Shown: piece after piece, positions 5,311 to 51,351 of the stretch
Layout: every line of letters starts with the position of its first letter
Position numbering within the stretch: position 1 is the first letter of the stretch
Assembly: GCA_944389135.1 (NCBI GenBank)
Contig: CALXLG010000004.1
Span: forward strand, 2,413 to 66,412
Source of the DNA: an uncultured Alphaproteobacteria bacterium
GTDB taxonomy: Bacteria > Pseudomonadota > Alphaproteobacteria > Rs-D84
Length of the DNA: 64,000 nt
Direction of reading: 5' to 3'
The notes under the pieces: model-generated
Database searches by the model: none
What the model was told of the DNA's origin: nothing
Seen by the model: the letters and a program-made list of their open reading frames with translations, nothing else
Program-made: the position numbers and the translations under genes

Positions 5311-8300
5311 TTATTCCATGCTGGTGGTAATAACATCACCATATACACCGAACTGTTCAGAACCGATATAACACTGCAGATGCTTACCAACTTCGTTCAT
5401 CCATTCGTCAATGGCTTCACGTTCTGCTTTATCCAACTGAGCATCCTGTACACTTTTTGTTATGTAATAGGTCAACAACCCACCACCAACACCGCCAACG
5501 ACAGAGCTAACACCTGTTGCGATTGCACGTCTTTTTGTTTCATTTTTATCCACAGTAGTCGTGGCTGTAGAATAAGCTTCATCTCTACATGCATCTGCTA
5601 ATTTATCTAATTCGGTCTTTGCTTTCGTCCTAGCTTTTGTCAGTTGATCATCTGTAACAGAACTACTATTGCTCCTTTTTTGGTCTTCAAGAGTTTTTAA
5701 AGCTGTCATTGCGTCATTGACCGTATTAATAATTGTATAAGAAACATTCAGCTCCTCTGCAACTTTGATAGCATTATCTGAATATTGCTTAGCTGTTGCA
5801 TAATTGCTATCTATATTATTTCTTGCGCTACTAGCAAGACCCGCACAATTTCCTGCACGCGCACCTAATTGTCCACTTGCAGTGTTAGCTTTTTTATTTG
5901 ATTGTAAACCGGTTAATCCACCAAAGATGTCACCTGTTGCAACAGCGTCACCAAAGAAACCGCCACCAACGCCACCACCCAGTACACCCAGTGCGGTCAT
6001 CCAACCTGCAATCTTTGGCTGCGCCTCTTTTGCGTCCTCACGGGCAGCACTGCCAACATTTGCAGAGATTTCTTCCAATACACTGGATGGTATCCAGCTG
6101 CCACATGTAAATGTATCGCCCGCTGCATAATACGCTGTTGCCCAATCGGCACCCGAACGTATCGCATCTTGGATATATTTGTCGTCTGACTGAATGTTTA
6201 TACGGATACGGCAGAACGAACCATACAAATCATTACTTGCAACGAAATCATTTGCCTGCAACCCAGATACAGTATAATTAGACGGTACCTTGTTGTTTTT
6301 CAACTTTACCCACAAGAATGTACTGCCCATATCTTTATTACCCATGATACCACCAGAATTGCTGGACATACACATATTCTGTTGTTTTGTAAGCTTTGCG
6401 TTATATTTCGCTTGTGCTTCCATTTCCAAATCTGCAATCAAATCTGTAAATATTTGCGCTTGGGCTTTGCTCTCTGCCAACTGGTCTTTTGTTACCATTT
6501 TTGCAAACATATACATACCACTTGCGTCATCACAACGCCCAGATGCACCAGAACCGTTTTGTGTTGTACACAACAAATTCCCATCTACGTCTTGGTCTTG
6601 AACCATTGTCGCAGTTGTAGATACGTTATATGTACCAGCATCTAACCAACCTTGGCGAACACTGCCGGAACTGCCCCAAGAACTTGCCGAACTTGCATTA
6701 CCAGCCTGTGCACGAGCCATTTCAGCCTTGATATGTTCTGCACAATTTGGATCGGCTTGGACTGTATTTATACACAAACCTAAAATAATTGTATGATCCA
6801 AAACACCACCGACCTTATTCATACTGGCATTAAACGCATCATCGTTCGTATTGGTCAATGATGAATATATGTCTGTACGGTTACGATAACAATTCTGATA
6901 ATCTGTACCACACTGCACTTTAACACAGTTTGTCGCAGTTAATTTGCAATTTTGTTCCATCTGGTCTAATGCACTTTGACTATAAGAAGACGCCAATCTT
7001 GCATTCAAAGATGCAACAACACCAACTGGGTCACCACCGTTATCTGCAGATGTAAACAAACGATCAAACAAGCTGTTGCCATTATTAAATATGTTGATTG
7101 TTATCGCACTACCTTCGGTTGCGTCTAATTTTGCACCAGCATATTGACATGCAATATCATTATTAACAACAGCTTCGCACTCTGATTTTATTGTTTCCAA
7201 AGTACTTGGGTTCGTAACACCTTTTACTGTATTTGAATTGTTAAAAGCAGATGCATAACACGCAGCCCCGCTACCTTCGCCACATGCCAACATTGCACAT
7301 GAAGAAATAGTTTCAGAACAACGCTTCTTCGCTTCTTCATCAAACTGTACAATCAAATCGTCAATCTTTACGCTTAATGATGCATTCATACGTTTTTCAT
7401 ATGCTTCAGAAAACATTTCTGTATGATTATCAGGATCTTGCAACTGAGATGCACTTGGCATAGCACCATTTCCAATTAACGTCGCATAACAGTACTGATT
7501 TGTACCAATAGTATCCATACACTCGTTGCTTAAAAAGTCTTTTACAGAACTTTTTGTTGTTGTCGTCGCACCGCCATTATCAGATGCGCTTTTTTCCTGC
7601 ATTTTATCTGCGGCATCTGCCAATGCAGTTGCGCTTCCTTCTTTACATCTATATGGATTGCTGGCACATGCGTTTAAGAAACATTGGTCAATAACTTTAT
7701 AACATGTAGAAACCGCGTTAACTGCCGCCAATGCCCTACCTTCAGAAATTAAAATACCAACACGACTGTCTGCCGTTGGGTTTGCAGACGTGTTTGTTGT
7801 ACCAAACAATTCTTTGATACCATCACTTTGGCAACGCGCCAAGGTTGATTCACAGAATAATTTTTGCTTCTTGAATTCGGTATCGCTTGTACACAATTCA
7901 AAATCAGAACCACAAACGTCTGATTTCTGCAAACAACTTGTATATTTCTTTACACAGTCGCTTGTATCATAACGATTGCTTATTTCAGCCGCAGAAATTA
8001 ACTGTCCCAAGACACTGCCTGCCGTTGGGTAAGTATATTCACCACTTGAATTCTTTGTTGCCAATGCGGTTTGACTGCTTGTACCAAACAAAGAGTTTAT
8101 ACCAGAAGCATTACACATTGCCAACGTACCAGAACATACCGCCTTTCTAGAAAAGAACAGCGTGTTATTTGTACATTCTTCAAAATTACTGCCACAAGCA
8201 TCGCTTCCTTTCAAGCATTCTGTGTATGCATCAATACACTCGGAGTTTTCTAATAAACTTGACGTGGTCGCCGTCGTTCCTGTTGAACTAGAAACATATG

Positions 8301-41986: not shown

Positions 41987-42115
41987 CCCCGCCTTTGGTC
42001 GGGGAGCCGTCGGTTATAAAACAGGGCTTGCCCGAAAACTGGCGGGGTCATTTTACAAACTATGATTTTTTGAACTCCCCGACCGTCAAATTCCATTGGC
42101 GGTCTTATGTTTTTT
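41987..42115 (+). promoter_or_regulatory. candidate attenuator/riboswitch-like leader
   Basis: Terminator hairpin 42081-42104 plus U-run lies just before the ribosome-binding site. An alternative 8 bp pairing (41997-42004 ggtcgggg with 42077-42084 ccccgacc) and a local hairpin (41987-42003) give mutually exclusive structures. Confidence 0.35.
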
Positions 42116-42133
42116 AAGAAAGGAGTCGGTAAG

Positions 42134-43504
42134 ATGCAAAAATTTATGCTTTTGACTAGTATTTTAGTTTTATCTGCATGTGGAGGAGGCTCAGGTGGTA
42201 GCTCTGCCAATAGCACAACGCCACCTACTAATCCAGAAATCCCCACTGGGACAATATGGCAAGAACCAACTGTATCAGAGGATGTCGCCAACAGTAATAA
42301 GCAAATTACAAGTATGCGATCTGCAATTAGCAATTCAACCAAAGTTGTTGCATATGTAGAAGAACAACTTGAATCATTTATAGAAACAGCTTCTGTATCC
42401 CAACCTACATCGTTAAATACTACTAATCGTGCAGCTTTTACATGGATGGCACCAAGTACAGGCAACAACTTATCAAAAGATGAACAAGCACTGGAAATCT
42501 CTAAATTAAGTGAATGGTTGCTATTAGATACAACTACAGAAGAAGATATCGTAGCAGTTTTTAATCACGACAAACAAAAGTTGCATAAAGCGATGCATGT
42601 TTTAAGTAAAGGTAACAATCCATGCTTTATTGGCGGAAGTGCAACTGAAACCGCTGCTTGCTTTAAAAATACCTGGGTACAAAATAACAGCTCTGCAATT
42701 GAAGAATTTGAATCAAACGGAAAATTAGAAACGTTTAATTTAAATGATATAGATTTCAAAATGATAGAAGGTAACAAAACAGAGACTTTTGAAATAGTCG
42801 TTAACGAAAACGGAAAAATTACGGGATTGCATTTTAGAGACAAAAACAGGGAACGTATTGGTGATTCAAATGATTTTGATTTTGTTGAAATGTTAGGACC
42901 TGATGATGCCAAAGTTGAAGTTCAAGCAAAATTGTCTTATGAAAGTCACGGTAAAAACATAGGAACAAGCGGTTTAAAATATGCGGATTTTGGTTTGTTA
43001 CGTTTTAATTCCGAACAACCGGGGTTTGAATTTGAAGAAATTATGCCATATGCCGGTGGCTATGAGGCCAAACGAATAGATAAATCTGACATTGAAAATA
43101 CAGTAACATTTAATGGTCACGCAATTGGACAGGCGGGTAATACAGAATTGGCTGACGACAGCGCAACGTTGGTATTTGATAAAGCCAGTGGTGACGAGAC
43201 ATTTTCAGCTTCATTTGATAACTGGTACGACATCAATGTAGTAAAGAATGATACAGGAATCATATTTACATTCACAGGCGACGCCAAAGATGGACCAACT
43301 TTATCTACCCCGACAATAAGTACACCTGGTGGAACCAATGGTGATATAGAAATCATTGGATTTGAAACGGCATACTATGGTGATTCCAAATCTCCATCAG
43401 AAGCTACTGCGTTATTTAATTATTCACAGGATGTAAATGGTCTTGGTGGCGAAAACGCCGACTATACACATGTCAATATTAGCTTTGGTGGCAAGGCAGA
43501 ATAA
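42134..43504 (+). CDS. surface-lipoprotein candidate (TbpB/fHbp-like)
   Basis: aggag ribosome-binding site 8 nt upstream. Lipobox LSAC followed by a GGGSGGSS flexible linker. C-terminal beta-rich domain. Confidence 0.5.
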   Translation: MQKFMLLTSILVLSACGGGSGGSSANSTTPPTNPEIPTGTIWQEPTVSEDVANSNKQITSMRSAISNSTKVVAYVEEQLESFIETASVSQPTSLNTTNRAAFTWMAPSTGNNLSKDEQALEISKLSEWLLLDTTTEEDIVAVFNHDKQKLHKAMHVLSKGNNPCFIGGSATETAACFKNTWVQNNSSAIEEFESNGKLETFNLNDIDFKMIEGNKTETFEIVVNENGKITGLHFRDKNRERIGDSNDFDFVEMLGPDDAKVEVQAKLSYESHGKNIGTSGLKYADFGLLRFNSEQPGFEFEEIMPYAGGYEAKRIDKSDIENTVTFNGHAIGQAGNTELADDSATLVFDKASGDETFSASFDNWYDINVVKNDTGIIFTFTGDAKDGPTLSTPTISTPGGTNGDIEIIGFETAYYGDSKSPSEATALFNYSQDVNGLGGENADYTHVNISFGGKAE

Positions 43505-44845
43505 TTGAAACGCGGTCTTTTAATATTAATCATACTAATTCTGCCCAATGTTGTTTGGGCAGAATTAAATAAAGAAAAAGAATTTATAGTCTCCGCATTG
43601 GATGCGGTAAAACTGGCGGGAAAATTCGTTGAACATGGCGATTATGGTAATGCTTTGCAAATTCTGAACAAAATGCCCCCATTACAAAACGCCTCACTAG
43701 AAATAGAACGTTGGTTTTTATTGGCACAAATAGCATCACGAAAAAATGATTTTGATACTGCAATAGACATCTATAAAAAAATCTTAAACGCTCAACCAAA
43801 CTTAGCAAGAGTCCGTTTTGATTTAGCTGTATGTTATATGAAAATAGGTCAATGGTCGCGTGCAGATTATCATTTGCGATTGGCAATGTCAGGAAAAGAT
43901 TTACCAAACAACATCAAAAATTTGATGAATTACTATCGCTATATAATTCGTCAAAATAAAAATTGGAATATTTGGTTTAATTTCGGGGCCGCACCAGATA
44001 ATAATATAAACTCATCTGTTGGTGGCGAAGAGTGCGTGATGACGATGTTCGGAAAAATGTGTCGCCAATTACCCGATCCTGTTTCTGCAATAGGGTTTAA
44101 CTTTTCTGGTGGCGGAGATTATGAATTTAAACTATCTGACCAATGGCGATGGAAATCAAATACCGATATTTATACAAATGTATATAATCAACACAATTTC
44201 GATGACTTATATCTATCTTTTGGCACGGGGCTACGATACATATGGTCGCGAGGTGATGTGGGGCTGACTACAATCGGTGCAAGGCGATGGTATGGTTGGG
44301 AAGAATATAATTGGTCTTTGGGGGCAAAATTAGATACGAATTATGATTTCAATCGCAAGTTATCGGGTAGTTTGCATTTTAGATTTATGAATAATTTCTA
44401 CGATGATTTCGGCGAATATCTAGATGGGCAGACATATAGCGCAACAGCTAGATTATTTTATTCTCTGAATTCATCTATGTATCTATCACTACGTAGCGGA
44501 ATTGAACGCGAAACTACTAAAATTTCTTTGTATTCTAATTGGCGTCCCAGTGCAGCAATTGGATTTGGTGCCGAATTACCATACGGGATACATATTTATT
44601 TAGAGCCGAGTATCTACATGGCATTCTATGATGCGCCAAGGTGGACTATACAAAACGACAAATTTTCACAAATTATAGAACATAGTTATACAACTCGATA
44701 TGCGATATCTATATCAAATAATAAATTAGATATATGGGGTTTTGTTCCAACGTTGACGTTCAGTTATACAAAACGAGAATCTAATATATGGCAAAGGGAA
44801 TACAATAAAACCGCCATTGAATTTAGTATGCAACAGCGGTTTTAA
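43505..44845 (+). CDS. TPR plus C-terminal beta-barrel outer-membrane protein (Slam/DUF560-like)
   Basis: TTG start immediately after the upstream stop. Signal peptide, then an N-terminal TPR region, then a beta-barrel ending ...MQQRF. Confidence 0.5.
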   Translation: MKRGLLILIILILPNVVWAELNKEKEFIVSALDAVKLAGKFVEHGDYGNALQILNKMPPLQNASLEIERWFLLAQIASRKNDFDTAIDIYKKILNAQPNLARVRFDLAVCYMKIGQWSRADYHLRLAMSGKDLPNNIKNLMNYYRYIIRQNKNWNIWFNFGAAPDNNINSSVGGEECVMTMFGKMCRQLPDPVSAIGFNFSGGGDYEFKLSDQWRWKSNTDIYTNVYNQHNFDDLYLSFGTGLRYIWSRGDVGLTTIGARRWYGWEEYNWSLGAKLDTNYDFNRKLSGSLHFRFMNNFYDDFGEYLDGQTYSATARLFYSLNSSMYLSLRSGIERETTKISLYSNWRPSAAIGFGAELPYGIHIYLEPSIYMAFYDAPRWTIQNDKFSQIIEHSYTTRYAISISNNKLDIWGFVPTLTFSYTKRESNIWQREYNKTAIEFSMQQRF

Positions 44846-46141: not shown

Positions 46142-48310
46142 TTATTTTTCTATTTCTTTACCTGTTTTCTGGTCAATACCAACCATAGACATACGTGTTT
46201 TTCCACGTTTGTCTGCACCAAGGTATCTTACGAAAACTTTATCGCCTTCTTTGATTTTGGTGTCTTCTATCTTTGCGATTCTTTCACCTGTTATTTCAGA
46301 GATATGAACCATAGATTCAAAACCATTCAAGATTTTTACAAACAGACCAAAATCTTTGATACCAGATACTGTACCTTCATAAATTACACCAACTTCTGGT
46401 TCAGCAACAATGTCTTTGATGCGCTTGATTGCTTCATCTGCCTCTTCTTTAGAAGTTGCCATAATTTTTATTGTACCATCATCAGATAAATCAATCTGTG
46501 TATTCGTTTCACGTGTTAAGGCCTGTATAACAGAACCACCCTTTCCGATAACGTCGCGAACTTTATCTGGATTGATTTTCATGGTATAAGCCTGAGGGGC
46601 AAATTCAGAGACGTGTTTACGTGGTGCTTTGATTGCTTTTTCAATCTTGCCCAAGATGTGCATACGCCCTTCTTTCGCTTGCGCCAAAGCTTTTTCCATA
46701 ATTTCAAATGTAATTGATGTGATTTTAATATCCATCTGCAAAGCAGTGATACCGTCTTTTGTACCAGTTACCTTAAAGTCCATATCACCAAGATGATCTT
46801 CATCACCTAAGATATCTGTCAAAATAGCGTAATCATCACCTTCTTTAATCAACCCCATTGCGATACCTGCAACTGGACGCTTTAGTGGTACACCACCATC
46901 CATCATGGCAAGTGTTGCACCGCATGTTGTTGCCATAGATGAAGAACCGTTTGATTCCAAAATATCAGATACAACGCGAATAACATAATCAAATTCGCTG
47001 CGGCTTGGAACCATTGGATGAACTGCACGCCATGCCAAGTTTCCATGACCTATTTCACGACGACCCGGTGATTTCAAACCTTTGGCTTCACCAACAGAAT
47101 AGCCTGGGAAGTTGTAATTCAAGATGAAATCACGTTCTTCTTCACCATCCAAAGATTCTATTGGCAATGCATCTTTGCCACCACCAAGCGTCAAAGAAAC
47201 CAAAGCCTGTGTTTCACCACGTGTAAACAACGCAGAACCGTGTGCACGTGGCAATACACCCAATTCAATTTCAATTGGACGAACCGTCTTATTATCACGA
47301 CCGTCAATACGTGGTTTCCCTGCTAAGATATTGCCACGCATAATACGAGCCGTCAAATTTTCAACAATTTCATCTGCCCAAGATTCCAATGTAGATGTAG
47401 CGGTTGTTGTTTCTGGGAATAATTCTGGGATACGTGCTTTTGCTTCTGCATGAATATTACCCAAAGTTTCCAAACGAACCAACTTTTCTTTTATCTGCAA
47501 TGCGGCTTCTATTTCACCAGCAAAAGATTCAAAATCTTTTTGCATTGCAACATATTCTGCTGATAATTCTGGTGTTGCCCAGCGTTCTTTACCCGCTGTT
47601 TCAGCTAATTCGTTAATAGCTTTAATAACTGCTTGTTGTGCATCAAAACCGAATTTAACCGCACCAAGCGTTGTTGCTTCGTCCAATTCACCGATTTCTG
47701 ATTCAACCATCAAAACACCGTCTTTTGTTGCAGCAACAACCAAATCCATTTCTGAATCTTCGGTTTCTTTCTTTGATGGGTTTAATAAATACTTACCGTC
47801 TTTATAGCCAACACGCGCTGCACCAATTGGTCCTTGGAAAGGAACACCTGATAAAGCCAACGCTGCAGAAGACGCAATCATCGCCAAAATATCTGGTTGA
47901 TTTTTCTTATCATAAGAAAATACCTGAGCAATTATTTGAACTTTGTTTTTGAAAGTTTCTGGGAACAGCGGACGAATAGGTCTATCAATTAAACGTGCAA
48001 TTAAAGTTTCTGCAGTTGACGCCTTACCTTCACGTCTATCACGAGAACCTGGGATACGACCCGCAGATGCAAATTTTTCTTGATAATCAACAGTTAACGG
48101 GAAGAAATCTTGCCCTTCGACAGCCGTTTTTTCAGCACAAACCGTTGCCAGAACCATTGTGCCACCCATTGTTGCAAGCACTGAACCATTAGCCTGCTTT
48201 GCCATACGACCTGTTTCCAGGCGCAATGTTTCATCACCATATTTTATTTCAACCGCAACTGGATTATTCAGATGCGTTTTTTCGTCTTTATTAAATAAAC
48301 CAAATAACAT
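46142..48310 (-). CDS. pnp: polynucleotide phosphorylase
   Basis: Two RNase PH domains, a KH domain and an S1 domain; the N-terminus aligns with PNPase. Confidence 0.95.
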   Translation of the reverse strand: MLFGLFNKDEKTHLNNPVAVEIKYGDETLRLETGRMAKQANGSVLATMGGTMVLATVCAEKTAVEGQDFFPLTVDYQEKFASAGRIPGSRDRREGKASTAETLIARLIDRPIRPLFPETFKNKVQIIAQVFSYDKKNQPDILAMIASSAALALSGVPFQGPIGAARVGYKDGKYLLNPSKKETEDSEMDLVVAATKDGVLMVESEIGELDEATTLGAVKFGFDAQQAVIKAINELAETAGKERWATPELSAEYVAMQKDFESFAGEIEAALQIKEKLVRLETLGNIHAEAKARIPELFPETTTATSTLESWADEIVENLTARIMRGNILAGKPRIDGRDNKTVRPIEIELGVLPRAHGSALFTRGETQALVSLTLGGGKDALPIESLDGEEERDFILNYNFPGYSVGEAKGLKSPGRREIGHGNLAWRAVHPMVPSRSEFDYVIRVVSDILESNGSSSMATTCGATLAMMDGGVPLKRPVAGIAMGLIKEGDDYAILTDILGDEDHLGDMDFKVTGTKDGITALQMDIKITSITFEIMEKALAQAKEGRMHILGKIEKAIKAPRKHVSEFAPQAYTMKINPDKVRDVIGKGGSVIQALTRETNTQIDLSDDGTIKIMATSKEEADEAIKRIKDIVAEPEVGVIYEGTVSGIKDFGLFVKILNGFESMVHISEITGERIAKIEDTKIKEGDKVFVRYLGADKRGKTRMSMVGIDQKTGKEIEK

Positions 48311-48505
48311 TTATTTCTCCATTTTTTAAGTTTAATAAACGCGAAGAAAAATTATTCGTTTTTGCACTCTGACAAAGCGCAAGAAAGAACAATTTCCCCT
48401 TCGCAAATTCAATTATAAAAGATATTTACCTGTTTGCAAATAATTTAATGGATATTGTATATATTATTGTAATATAATAGTGATATAAGAACGGAATTAA
48501 ATAAA

Positions 48506-48871
48506 ATGAAAAAAATAAAAAAGTTATTGTCCGCATTTATCATTTGCAGCATATGTACAAGCTATTCTTATGCCGCTAATTTAACTTGTAATAACTTAAG
48601 CCTTTGTCGAGTAAAATGCTTAACAACTTTTCCGGACGGATATTGCTGTACAGCTTTAGGAAATCAAGGAACTAGTACCACATGTCCAACAGGCTGGTCT
48701 CTTAATTACCAAGGCATATGTTCTAGGAATCCAACGGAAGAGGCTGATTCTATTGGATACTATACACAAACATATTCATCTTGTAGTCCTACAACCACTT
48801 ACTATGATTGTTACTACAACCAACCTAACAGTGTTATTGGAGAGACTTGCGTAAAATGCGGGCATATGTAA
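48506..48871 (+). CDS. small secreted Cys-rich protein (12 Cys)
   Basis: Signal peptide. Many Cys with YY motifs. Confidence 0.5.
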   Translation: MKKIKKLLSAFIICSICTSYSYAANLTCNNLSLCRVKCLTTFPDGYCCTALGNQGTSTTCPTGWSLNYQGICSRNPTEEADSIGYYTQTYSSCSPTTTYYDCYYNQPNSVIGETCVKCGHM

Positions 48872-49153
48872 ATGAAAAAAATTATACTTTTACTTTTTAT
48901 TGTATTTAGTGTTACATCTGCATTTGGTGCATGTGCGCCCCTTTCAAAAACATATACTGCATGCAAACCTGGTTATTATTTAGAAAACGGACAATGTAAA
49001 AGATGTCCTGATGTTAACGGGGTTTACGGAACAACAGTTGATAGAAATACAGGTGATATAAACTCTTGTTATTTGCCAAACGGCACAACAGGAAGTAATA
49101 CTTACGGCAGTTATGATATAGTAGGAAGTTGCTATATATATCCGCAGCAATAA
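48872..49153 (+). CDS. small secreted Cys-rich protein, likely a paralog of the upstream gene
   Basis: ATG immediately after the upstream stop. Signal peptide. CKPGYY...CKRC pattern. Confidence 0.5.
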   Translation: MKKIILLLFIVFSVTSAFGACAPLSKTYTACKPGYYLENGQCKRCPDVNGVYGTTVDRNTGDINSCYLPNGTTGSNTYGSYDIVGSCYIYPQQ

Positions 49154-49183
49154 AAAAACCGGCATTTGCCGGTTTTTTATTTA
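49153..49183. terminator. bidirectional terminator
   Basis: aaaaaaaccggc-attt-gccggtttttt. Confidence 0.6.
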
Positions 49184-49449
49184 CGTAGACCTAATTTCTT
49201 AATCAGTTCTTCGTATTCCGCTGGATTACGTTTCTTTATGTAAGCCAACAGTTTCTTACGACGATTAACCATTAACAACAAACCACGTTTTGAATGTTCG
49301 TCTTTGTGGTTATCTTTCATATGTTTTGTTAAATTGCGAATACGTTCAGTTAAAACGGCAACTTGTGCTTCAACGGAACCACCATTGTCTTTTTCACTTG
49401 ATTTAAACGCATTAATCAATTCTGTCTTTTTTTCTTTTGTAATGGACAT
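49177..49449 (-). CDS. rpsO: 30S ribosomal protein S15
   Basis: Full-length alignment to S15 (LTERIRNLTKHMKDNHKDEHSKRGLLLMV). Confidence 0.95.
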   Translation of the reverse strand: MSITKEKKTELINAFKSSEKDNGGSVEAQVAVLTERIRNLTKHMKDNHKDEHSKRGLLLMVNRRKKLLAYIKKRNPAEYEELIKKLGLRK

Positions 49450-49467: not shown

Positions 49468-50379
49468 TTAAATTGTTCGTTTAGGACGTAAAAATCCGCC
49501 TTGAACCACACCTATCCCAACAAAGTCTTCGTTGCTGTAAACACGACGTAGCCCATCGTTCACATCCGTTTTGATAAAACCACCGTTTCTATAAAACTGC
49601 GCGCTTTTATCGTCCAGATTTTGAACCGGAATGTCCCCCAGCCCAAAATCAATTGGTTTCAAGTATTCCTTGAAATCTGCCTTATTATTAAACAGATTTT
49701 CTAAAAAATCAAGTTTTACCGCACTTTTGATATCAACCCCATTTGTCCGAACTCTTCGTATCATATTTACAGTCGCAATCGTTCCGCACTTTTTTGCTAT
49801 ATCACGTGCCAGCGCACGAATATATGTTCCACGACTGCACACAACACGAAAAGTCCAAGTATCATCCGTTTTTTCAATAAAATCTAATGAATAAATAAAT
49901 ACACGACGTGCCGGAATTTCTATTTCTTTCCCGCTACGTGCCAAGTCATACGCCCGCTGTCCGTCAATATGCACAGCACTAAAAGCTGGTGGCACCTGCT
50001 CTATTTCACCAACAAAAGATTTAGTGGCACTAACAACTTGTTCTGTATCTGGAATTATATCTGTACGCGCAATTTCCGCCCCTGTTATATCAAGGCTATC
50101 TGTTTCAAACCCAAATTGCAGTGAAAACAAATATTCTTTTTTACCGTCAGAAACATCTTCTATAAAAGGTATCATCTTTGTGGCACTGCCCAGCGCAATT
50201 GGCAAGACACCCGATGCCATTGGATCAAGTGTACCAATATGTCCAAAAGTTTTTGCACCAAAAATATGTGCAATGCGCCCGCCTGCACTGCGACTAAACA
50301 TACCCGAAGGTTTATCTAAAATTATCCAACCAGAAGACAATTTAACGCACCTTAAGAACCATTTTTTGATTGCTGACAA
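49468..50379 (-). CDS. truB: tRNA pseudouridine(55) synthase TruB
   Basis: GHIGTLDPMASGVLPIALGSATK motif. The start codon is non-ATG; an alternative TTG at 50340 lies 1 nt after the upstream stop. Confidence 0.85.
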   Translation of the reverse strand: MSAIKKWFLRCVKLSSGWIILDKPSGMFSRSAGGRIAHIFGAKTFGHIGTLDPMASGVLPIALGSATKMIPFIEDVSDGKKEYLFSLQFGFETDSLDITGAEIARTDIIPDTEQVVSATKSFVGEIEQVPPAFSAVHIDGQRAYDLARSGKEIEIPARRVFIYSLDFIEKTDDTWTFRVVCSRGTYIRALARDIAKKCGTIATVNMIRRVRTNGVDIKSAVKLDFLENLFNNKADFKEYLKPIDFGLGDIPVQNLDDKSAQFYRNGGFIKTDVNDGLRRVYSNEDFVGIGVVQGGFLRPKRTI

Positions 50380-50845
50380 ATTCTAAAAATTCATCAATCT
50401 TTGTTTTACCATTAACAACAGCAGGTGTTTCTTGACTCAAAGTCTTTGGATTGATAACTATTATTTCTTCGTTTTTAGGTACAGAAAATCTGTGTGTAAT
50501 ATAAGAATTACGACGTAAGAAAGGCACTTCTAAGTTATAAACATCGTGCTTTGGTAATTCCACAATTTTTTCAACATTGCGCCCAACCCATATTGTTGGT
50601 CCCCAGATAATTTCTGTTTTCGCTTTGTGCCCTTCTATATCAAAAACAAATCTATACCCTAATTTGAAAACAGGAGGATTTGCATTTATAGAAACATTTG
50701 CTGTTATTGGTTTGCCTGTTGAAGAATATATTTTTGTAAAATTAAACTGTTCTATGAATTTTTTTACTTCTTCTGAATTTGAAAACTCTTTATAAATAGT
50801 ATTATATAAATTCGTTTCAAAAACAAAACTTGGTTTTATTTTCAT
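50342..50845 (-). CDS. hypothetical protein, tandem paralog A
   Basis: Shares an N-terminal FxFxTxxYNxxYKEF pattern and an IxWGP motif with the adjacent ORF. Confidence 0.5.
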   Translation of the reverse strand: MKIKPSFVFETNLYNTIYKEFSNSEEVKKFIEQFNFTKIYSSTGKPITANVSINANPPVFKLGYRFVFDIEGHKAKTEIIWGPTIWVGRNVEKIVELPKHDVYNLEVPFLRRNSYITHRFSVPKNEEIIVINPKTLSQETPAVVNGKTKIDEFLEFVSNQKMVLKVR

Positions 50846-50856
50846 TTTATAACCTT

Positions 50857-51351
50857 TTATCTATATTTTAACTTATAGCTTTCTTTAGCCGCATGTACCA
50901 GAAACTTAACAAGTTCGGTCTTTGGTTTTTTGCGCTTTGGCCATATCTGTCGCATAGAAACAAGGTCTATTATGGCGTCTGCCATATTTTTATTAAATCT
51001 TATTTCTTGATACTCACGATAAACAACACTAGAAACATCAGATGTTTCTTTTTTATCCATAGGTACTTTTACAAAAATTCTGCCTTTTGCATCTTCTCTA
51101 ACCTCAGACCCAACGATAAACCTTGGCCCCCACTTTATATTAGATTTACAAAAGTCGCCATTTACATGCACCCCAAAACAACACCCCAACTGAAACTCGG
51201 GTAGTCCCGTTGGAACATTGCTAATTGCATGAGATTGCATAAAATCAAAACTATGTAAAAAATTTTTTAACTCATCAGAGCTATAAAACTCTTTATACTG
51301 CGGATTATAGAACGGTGTTTTAAATATGAACAAAGTCTTTATACGCACCAC
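50857..51351 (-). CDS. hypothetical protein, tandem paralog B
   Basis: Paralog of 50342-50845, similar in length with shared motifs. Confidence 0.5.
   Translation of the reverse strand: MVRIKTLFIFKTPFYNPQYKEFYSSDELKNFLHSFDFMQSHAISNVPTGLPEFQLGCCFGVHVNGDFCKSNIKWGPRFIVGSEVREDAKGRIFVKVPMDKKETSDVSSVVYREYQEIRFNKNMADAIIDLVSMRQIWPKRKKPKTELVKFLVHAAKESYKLKYR

Follow-up and report, generated by a model that had tools for sequence, protein, structure and literature searches.

A hypervariable cassette of two predicted exported cysteine-rich proteins between pnp and rpsO in uncultured gut Alphaproteobacteria

Between pnp and rpsO, in a 64,000-nucleotide (nt) stretch of an uncultured alphaproteobacterial genome (GTDB lineage Rs-D84; assembly GCA_944389135.1, contig CALXLG010000004.1, positions 2,413 to 66,412; hereafter the window, with a G+C content of 37.9%), lies a cassette of two small cysteine-rich genes whose alleles are deeply diverged between genomes that are nearly identical on either side of it. 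The two products, both predicted to be exported, belong to a family that, as judged from profile searches, is clade-wide and multicopy, such that the window pair is one copy among many and not an isolated acquisition. On balance, we favor the view that they are co-transcribed, variable surface or secreted binding proteins under diversifying selection. Most cassettes in related genomes are preceded by a leader RNA that is absent from the window and makes a strong candidate for a cis-regulatory RNA of a new class.

Deeply diverged alleles between near-identical flanks

The elements of the locus are as follows (aa, amino acids; ORF, open reading frame).

46142-48310, minus strand: pnp (polynucleotide phosphorylase), the left conserved flank, a 722-aa ORF with Pfam domains RNase_PH (4e-58), PNPase, KH_1 and S1
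48340-48405, minus strand: long hairpin (66 nt) in the pnp 5' leader, a candidate RNase III/autoregulation stem-loop
48412-48440, minus strand: putative sigma-70-type promoter of pnp itself (equivalent to E. coli P2), TTTGCA-17-TATAAT, 10 of 12 matches
48449-48478, plus strand: putative divergent promoter of the cassette, TGGATA-18-TATAAT, 10 of 12 consensus matches
48459-49152, no strand assigned: hypervariable segment, the block of allelic replacement, from DNA alignment of the window with loci L060 and L008
48506-48871, plus strand: ORF1, a 121-aa Cys-rich, predicted exported protein (ORF listing; signal peptide, about residues 1-23)
48872-49153, plus strand: ORF2, a 93-aa predicted exported protein with a signal peptide and one six-Cys domain (ORF listing, family alignments)
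49153-49178, both strands: putative bidirectional intrinsic terminator common to ORF2 (plus) and rpsO (minus), a perfect 12-nt inverted repeat, AAAAAACCGGCA/TGCCGGTTTTTT
49177-49449, minus strand: rpsO (ribosomal protein S15), the right conserved flank, Pfam Ribosomal_S15 (1.9e-31)
49468-50379, minus strand: truB

The closest comparison is with L060, which comes from what is essentially the same species as the window; identities at the aa level and synonymous divergence (dS) between the two are as follows.

pnp: 99.2% aa, dS 0.083
rpsO: 100% aa, dS 0
truB: 96.6% aa, dS 0.102
Slam gene: 99.8% aa
ORF1: 48% aa, dS 2.1
ORF2: 67% aa, dS 1.5

Aligned as DNA with L060 and L008, the window is about 99 to 100% identical outside positions 48459-49152 and strongly diverged inside them, with sharp boundaries. 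L008 represents a different species (its pnp product is 95.3% identical to that of the window, with a dS of 0.93), and the divergence of ORF1 and ORF2 between the window and L060 equals or exceeds the divergence of the window from L008. Because the dS of the cassette is thus at or above the between-species level, the window and L060 carry anciently separated alleles that have been swapped by recombination in the flanks.

A third locus, L063, has an allele of the window type (ORF2 97% and ORF1 77% identical to the window). Over ORF1, this pair of alleles is separated by 37.5 nonsynonymous and 5.5 synonymous differences, yielding a ratio of nonsynonymous to synonymous rates (omega) of 1.85, or 2.6 for the mature part, and the changes cluster in the mature N terminus and the C-terminal tail. 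For the deeply separated alleles, omega is 0.19 to 0.29, and because these values lie around 0.2, the proteins are constrained overall.

Operon structure and the split of rpsO from pnp

The gap between pnp and rpsO measures 866 nt (48311-49176), close to the approximately 870 nt given by an earlier reading made from the letters alone (hereafter the sequence-only reading), whose description of two opposite-strand genes of 121 and 93 aa arranged head to tail also agrees with the sequence: the ORF2 ATG abuts the ORF1 stop codon TAA, with 0 nt between them (TAAATG). The gap is best explained by a predicted operon of two genes, with a dedicated promoter and a bidirectional terminator that it shares with rpsO. 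Two promoter-like sites stand back to back in 48412-48478, one directed toward pnp and the other toward ORF1, and the TATAAT of the latter is common to the window, L060 and L008 and also opens most rows of the leader alignment of relatives (see below). At the opposite end, the palindrome at 49153-49178 bears a U-run on either strand, and the hairpin folds with -15.5 kcal/mol (z -4.5) on the plus strand and -18.3 kcal/mol (z -5.6) on the minus strand. Assembly artefact is excluded as the source of this arrangement because two independent assemblies, L001 and L002, are identical across it and a third, L063, has the same architecture.

Some details bear on expression of the pair. The 5' untranslated region of the window allele (48479-48505, plus strand) is very short and unstructured, the Shine-Dalgarno sequence of ORF1 is weak (GGAA versus AGGAG in the L060 allele), and no ribosome-binding site is obvious for ORF2 itself, the translation of which probably depends on coupling at the TAAATG junction.

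Disruption of a conserved operon, as the sequence-only reading had it, overstates the effect of the insertion. The promoter and hairpin that pnp might have kept in 48311-48505 are both found there, and the -35 box (TTTGCA), the -10 box (TATAAT) and both arms of the hairpin are almost invariant in the window, L008, L009, L015 and L017. The RNA of the pnp leader (48311-48420, minus strand) folds with -29 kcal/mol (z = -4.5), and 0 of 200 shuffled sequences were as stable. L017 has rpsO next to pnp at a distance of about 160 nt, its rpsO terminator abutting the -35 box of pnp and its cassette located elsewhere. Relative to this layout, the cassette is placed exactly between the predicted rpsO terminator and the predicted pnp promoter, so that the operon is split but not disabled; because of this placement, pnp would still be served by its own promoter and leader hairpin, and the sole loss is probably that of read-through from rpsO into pnp.

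The same layout is known from E. coli, in which rpsO-pnp comprises P1, the T1 terminator, the P2 promoter of pnp and an RNase III stem-loop, with sraG, a gene for a small RNA (sRNA), lying between rpsO and pnp on the other strand (PMC5029454). In the window, too, the terminator of rpsO is succeeded by a promoter dedicated to pnp and then by a long stem-loop in the leader, all of them conserved in the five genomes compared; an opposite-strand unit is likewise present between both genes, and RNase III may, by analogy with E. coli, cleave the pnp hairpin. Unlike sraG, the unit in the window is a protein-coding operon of two genes and 650 nt that is located 5' of the pnp promoter and does not run antisense to the leader.

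A clade-wide family and its leader RNA

As the sequence-only reading had noted, both proteins have signal peptides; we judged these to be of the Sec type, and placed the cleavage sites, by eye: each N terminus has an MKK start and a Lys-rich n-region, then a hydrophobic core that leads to a cleavage motif of small residues (A-x-A-like), with putative cleavage (slash) at ...SYSYA/ANLTC in ORF1 and ...TSAFG/AC in ORF2. Its counts of 12 and 7 cysteines need correction to 13 in ORF1 (2 in the signal peptide, 11 in the mature protein) and 6 in ORF2. The PGYY-type motif that it saw in both proteins is real, though distant: a profile-profile comparison of the two families (hhalign) aligns a 25-column core, TCPTGW..C.R versus TACKPGYY..C.RCP, with a probability of 93% and an E value of 3e-7, and by this measure, ORF1 and ORF2 are distant paralogues. 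The SAFGAC of ORF2 does not fit the lipoprotein lipobox [LVI][ASTVI][GAS]C (LPAM_1, 13 bits versus a cutoff of 20), and the cleavage sites of its relatives (A-Y-A/A-C, A-D-A/D-C and A-Y-A/E-C) are of the signal-peptidase-I type, with Cys at +2. Neither ORF1 nor ORF2 has a match in Pfam, NCBIfam, PHROGs or PADLOC. The G+C content at third codon positions is 0.29 in ORF1 and 0.18 in ORF2 versus 0.27 to 0.30 in neighboring genes, and the G+C content also matches that of the host. We infer export, disulfide bonding, a surface or secreted location and a binding function for the pair.

Profile searches place the pair in a large family. Homologues of ORF2 fall into 418 clusters at 90% identity (E ≤ 1e-3), and an exhaustive profile search recovers 1,275 representatives of the ORF2-domain family at 50% identity (E ≤ 1e-3); clear homologues are 50 to 63% identical to ORF2, each of their six Cys columns is invariant or almost invariant, and they are called “hypothetical protein” wherever the source gives a name. 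ORF1 has only two entries in a 5.8-billion-protein collection, and its database homologue is P0002 (77% identical). This near-orphan appearance is an annotation artefact, arising because public gene calls skip or misframe ORF1-type genes: such genes are uncalled or wrongly framed at L003 5663-5989, L004 5663-5989, L005 3927-4250 and L006 5579-5962, and at L003 5763-6047, a call in the wrong frame takes the place of the ORF1-type gene.

A scan of one genome per species yielded 52 loci, all from metagenome-assembled genomes (MAGs) of uncultured gut Alphaproteobacteria, some of them named “Candidatus Enterousia,” from human, chicken, yak, deer and other hosts; every named source of the family is likewise an uncultured gut Alphaproteobacteria MAG or “Ca. 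Enterousia.” When all reading frames of these loci are searched with hidden Markov models (HMMs), two classes emerge. Class A consists of pairs of ORF1-like and ORF2-like genes (about 20 loci from about 12 genomes, several per genome), with the ORF1-like gene directly 5' of the ORF2-like gene at spacings from a few bases of overlap up to about 25 nt. Class B consists of secreted Cys-rich proteins of 160 to 290 aa with the ORF2 domain at the extreme C terminus. In the exhaustive profile search, the domain match reaches the last residues of most longer family members, and in hundreds of other proteins of the clade, the conserved C-terminal domain follows an N-terminal part that is hypervariable and rich in cysteine; in ORF2, this six-Cys domain of about 65 residues stands alone. 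At least 17 domain-bearing ORFs occur in the fetched loci of one MAG (contigs of 697 kb and 271 kb; 0.97 Mb), and in the 64-kb window, the HMM search finds this single pair as the only copy.

The sequence-only reading took the insertion for a lineage-specific acquisition. The adjacency of rpsO and pnp in L017 agrees with this, but the pair, with its host-like G+C content, is one of many copies throughout the clade. Similarly, the arrangement does recur in relatives, although not with genes of a known family, as that reading had considered: there, they are “hypothetical” or uncalled. Phage and plasmid collections contained no relative of the pair, and we dropped a mobile-element origin on this account. 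A literature search on Rs-D84 and cysteine-rich proteins found no papers.

AlphaFold2 predicts the ORF2 domain as a beta-hairpin ladder. With an alignment of 95 sequences, the mean confidence (pLDDT) is 83.8, with residues 31-90 at about 90 or more, whereas a model from 12 sequences is too uncertain (pLDDT 61). Compared with the PDB by Foldseek, the model has no significant match (best E 0.55, TM score ≤ 0.35); the nonsignificant top ranks are mostly cysteine-rich domains (CRDs) of the TNFR superfamily (OX40, DR4 and CD40), EphA2 and HER3. A profile search against PDB sequences produces marginal matches to CCP and TNFR1 (E 0.075 for TNFR1). The Pfam model Ephrin_rec_like (PF07699) matches 10 of the 95 members of the alignment (A4), with a best value of 4.4e-9, and is attached in precomputed annotation to P0110, P0111 and P0114; two class B relatives score 17.5 and 21.2 bits, under its gathering threshold of 23.1 bits. 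Weak matches to the variant-specific surface proteins (VSPs) of Giardia (PF03302) occur in 4 of the 95 (best, 4.8e-5), and a TNFR-like model matches 2. We find that PF07699 recognizes some ORF2 homologues, which indicates a relationship at the level of the family, but the window ORF2 itself has no PF07699 match at E ≤ 1, remains below the gathering threshold, and is not assigned to that family. Membership in PF03302 is contradicted by the weakness of the matches, with one protein scoring 14.3 bits versus a cutoff of 31.4, and by the ends of the proteins, ...C-Y-Y-S-N with no hydrophobic tail. These matches and the model give weak evidence that the ORF2 domain is ephrin-receptor/TNFR-like in its first half.

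Cassettes occupy varied intergenic sites that coincide with breakpoints of synteny, as follows.

pnp - cassette - rpsO: window, L060-L063, L008
pnp - cassette, then unrelated genes: L009, L015
unrelated genes, then cassette - rpsO - truB - mutS: L022
cassette between mutS and infC: L017
cassette flanked by an ogt-like gene and a gene for an amidase: L003
cassette flanked by nth and a small ORF adjoining pheT: L006

In L009, L015 and L022, synteny with the window ends exactly at the cassette (around position 6000 in each). The coincidence points to recombination among dispersed copies of the cassette as a driver of genome rearrangement in the clade. The flanks of the window cassette contain no direct or inverted repeats, recombinase gene or target-site duplication, the terminator palindrome excepted. 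A second variable insertion is present in the same conserved neighborhood: two paralogous genes between truB and mutS (50342-51351, minus strand; 167 and 164 aa) have no match in Pfam, PHROGs or PADLOC. Their identity to the L060 counterparts is 98% and 91% but to those of L008 only 42% and 52%; they are represented by one copy in L017 and were not found in L022 and L024, in which truB is directly beside mutS.

Further along the window, at 43505-44845 (plus strand), 3.6 kb from the cassette, a Slam-type outer-membrane translocon (PF04575 SlipAM, 1.6e-32, and TPR_Slam) follows with a 0-nt gap upon a gene for a 465-aa lipoprotein (42107-43504, plus strand; lipobox LSAC, then GGGSGGSS; no Pfam match). 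Such pairs of a surface-lipoprotein gene and a Slam gene are known from Neisseria and occur here in a gut alphaproteobacterium. We considered the translocon as the exporter of ORF1 and ORF2 but found no link: its own lipoprotein substrate gene adjoins it, and the pair lacks a lipobox.

In L060 and L008, about 190 nt that are missing from the window lie between the TATAAT of the cassette and ORF1 and are better conserved than the coding sequence. This leader RNA is as follows.

L060:5417-5615 (plus) and L008:5405-5602 (plus), with about 60 more in L006-L059: leader RNA, 190 to 235 nt

In nhmmer searches, a single sequence gave 53 matches and a profile gave 65, spread over 63 loci; of the profile matches, 48 were scored as directly 5' of family genes. 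The element precedes nearly all family members. The window contains no copy (nhmmer profile, E ≤ 10), and its ORF1 ribosome-binding region directly follows the TATAAT, with sequence on both sides of the absent leader kept in alleles of the window type, including L063. Because L060 and L008 both carry the leader at the same locus, its absence has the appearance of a precise, derived deletion, and a few other ORF1-ORF2 pairs also lack it. Expression of the window allele is probably constitutive as a result.

Leader structure was derived from an alignment of 31 sequences, with covariation scored against slid controls. In a first predicted state, a 5' hairpin (P1), long-range closing stems (P2 and P3) and internal hairpins (P4 to P6, with the conserved loop GAAUAUAUUGAAUAAG on P6) precede an intrinsic terminator; pairing extends to 89% of cells, double changes are seen in 34 of 46 pairs, and covariation is 0.52 versus at most 0.13 in controls. 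The 3' arm of P5, GGUCAGGAGG, can pair equally well with CCUCCUGACC, a segment that overlaps the 5' arm of the terminator, and a second state with this pairing and an ACAAU/AUUGU hairpin has 93.7% of cells paired and a score of 0.49 versus at most 0.17. With a structured domain, a terminator and an exclusive alternative pairing, both states covarying, the leader has the predicted architecture of a switch that works by transcription attenuation, its terminator and antiterminator excluding each other. It also stands 5' of genes outside the family, at L036:8656-8844, L033:6473-6627, L027:5115-5289 and L040:9166-9360, which encode two small helix-turn-helix (XRE-like) regulators, an exported PAP2-phosphatase-like protein and an exported 117-aa protein, and because of these, it seems to define a regulon and not a single family.

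Against Rfam 15, searched at a permissive threshold over 52 kb, no family reaches its threshold for the leader. The 3' half of the L060 leader (5513-5587) resembles sRNA-Xcc1 (RF02221), with 32.3 bits against a gathering score of 53 and an E value of 4e-4 in a 231-nt search; a second leader, from L042, has no such match in a short-stretch search. The whole 87-nt model aligns to L060, including an outer stem of G-rich and C-rich arms, two hairpins, and AAUA and CUUUG loops, and both elements lie directly 5' of a gene, sRNA-Xcc1 adjoining symE upstream in Xanthomonas integron cassettes (bioRxiv 10.1101/2025.06.18.660453). Unlike sRNA-Xcc1, the leader is 190 to 235 nt long, has additional stems P1 to P4 and an intrinsic terminator, and occurs in Alphaproteobacteria before other genes. 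The resemblance may reflect distant relationship or convergence on a three-stem shape.

Possible functions and comparison with known systems

If the two proteins are variable surface or secreted binding proteins, as we favor, they would act outside the cytoplasm, mediating contact with the host, a partner cell or phage, and frequency-dependent (diversifying) selection, imposed by an agent that we can only infer, would keep the cassette diverse. Diversity would arise by replacement of whole cassettes through recombination in the conserved pnp and rpsO flanks and also by amino acid replacement in ORF1, and loss of the leader would have made expression of the window allele constitutive. Genomes of “Ca. 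Enterousia,” and of the whole order Rs-D84, are smaller than 1 Mb and lack many biosynthetic pathways (PMC12306168), from which dependence on partners is presumed. A more specific proposal, which we offer tentatively, is that the pair is a minimal, split form of a clade-specific, hypervariable ephrin-receptor/TNFR-like system of more than 1,000 proteins that serves attachment to, or manipulation of, hosts or partners under the control of a hitherto undescribed riboswitch-like leader, the copy at pnp-rpsO having become constitutive by precise deletion of that leader.

Several observations weigh against the reading of the pair as diversifying binding proteins. Omega above 1 comes from one pair of alleles, and clustered differences are also expected from short-patch recombination. 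With no lipobox, beta-barrel or known sorting signal in the proteins and no secretion system adjoining the cassette, the products could stay in the periplasm, while the weak Shine-Dalgarno sequence of ORF1 makes expression of the leaderless allele uncertain. The window ORF2 matches no Pfam model, and its Foldseek result is nonsignificant. Finally, paralogues within each of four genomes are 67 to 76% identical with no long identical tracts.

This last observation also bears on programmed variation, in which silent paralogues would donate sequence to an expression site or a mobile unit of promoter, leader and gene would hop between intergenic regions. The many paralogues, the conserved 5' leader and 3' domain around variable sequence, the different intergenic sites (mutS-infC in L017, nth-pheT in L006 and ogt-amidase in L003) and the breaks in synteny at cassettes are all compatible with such a process. 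Antigenic variation or cassette shuffling by gene conversion is nevertheless unsupported by the paralogues; most leader-bearing copies have their own -10 box and hence are not silent, and the window cassette, the single copy in 64 kb, lacks flanking repeats, a recombinase and a target-site duplication, all of which leaves programmed variation improbable. We give somewhat more credence, while still thinking it unlikely, to a housekeeping role in the periplasm or envelope (redox, metal binding or structural), with variability that reflects neutral drift at a recombination hot spot. Such a role would suit proteins that have no recognizable outer-membrane or secretion signal and many cysteines that could bind metals, and the cassette does stand at synteny breakpoints in L009, L015 and L022, indicative of frequent recombination. 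However, the near-invariant six cysteines in a predicted beta-hairpin ladder are typical of disulfide-bonded extracellular modules, omega for ORF1 (1.85 to 2.6) is above the neutral value whereas that of the deep alleles denotes constraint, and 17 or more copies in a genome of less than 1 Mb are hard to explain as housekeeping genes.

The bacteriocin, toxin or signaling peptide pair proposed by the sequence-only reading, to which microcins may be added, with diversification driven by competition among strains, is unsupported and less probable than either of these. The products are small, Cys-rich and exported, the genes are tightly linked, and the strong allelic divergence with omega above 1 in one partner has a parallel in colicin and microcin toxin/immunity loci, which show a like pattern of divergence. 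But the signal peptides are of the Sec type, and neither ORF1, ORF2 nor their neighbors have the features of class II microcins or double-glycine bacteriocins: no double-glycine leader is present, and the adjoining genes are pnp and rpsO, with no ABC exporter or immunity, lysis or modification gene. PADLOC and PHROGs gave no match, the immunity protein is not expected to be an exported paralogue of the toxin, and the ORF2 domain closes dozens of proteins of 150 to 340 aa per genome, unlike any known bacteriocin family. Least credible by far is that the ORFs arose by chance or are pseudogenes in decay within an enlarged intergenic region, a possibility that the sequence-only reading had also raised as nonconserved noise. 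Gene callers often skip or misframe ORF1 homologues, ORF1 has few database entries, and its ribosome-binding site is weak; however, both frames are intact in three independent assemblies, cysteines and motifs are kept across genomes of 37 to 50% G+C, the deep alleles are constrained, and the ORF2 profile has 1,275 significant representatives. Chance ORFs are excluded because of the homologous clusters, the near-invariant Cys columns and the recurrent ORF1-ORF2 pairing, and by these measures, both ORFs are real genes.

Rs-D84 and “Ca. Enterousia”-type bacteria are widespread in human and animal guts, where they presumably live off partners, and a fast-evolving, eukaryote-like, Cys-rich exported family that fills a visible share of a small genome and sits at recombination hot spots is, for these reasons, an obvious candidate for the interface of that interaction. 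The pnp-rpsO site, with deeply diverged alleles between near-identical flanks, also constitutes a natural marker for population genetics, and the regular skipping or misframing of ORF1-type genes by gene callers is of consequence for annotation.

Although the protein family is unannotated, its module is of a familiar kind, and hypervariable islands flanked by housekeeping genes are likewise known. O-antigen and capsule loci and the islands encoding pilins and flagellins share with the pnp-rpsO site the combination of deeply diverged alleles, a fixed location, near-identical flanks and sharp boundaries, and diverged alleles between near-identical flanks imply replacement by homologous recombination together with balancing or diversifying selection. 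Where those loci vary in a biosynthetic cluster or a filament subunit, the unit that varies here is only about 0.7 kb long and codes for two small proteins rich in cysteine.

For the module itself, the nearest counterparts are PF07699 and the TNFR CRDs, which have in common with the family the motif C-x2-G-Y-Y-x(4-8)-C-x2-C-P-x2-G and the occurrence, in exported proteins, of elongated, disulfide-laddered beta-hairpin modules (predicted for the family). They have no counterpart of the second half of the ORF2 domain, G-V-Y-G-T-T...I-T-x-C-Y-[IL]-P...G-S-D...C-Y-Y-S-N, and the ORF2 domain, unlike these modules, is bacterial, single-copy and strictly C-terminal; the likeness, one of sequence motif and predicted module shape, is no sign that the domain binds TNF-like or ephrin-like ligands. 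In its overall organization, the family parallels the Giardia VSPs, which also form a large paralogous group of rapidly evolving, exported, Cys-rich proteins that vary in their N-terminal part and are conserved toward the C terminus. Unlike the VSPs, it is bacterial, has neither a C-terminal transmembrane helix nor a CRGKA tail, matches the VSP model below curated thresholds, and gives no sign of mutually exclusive expression.

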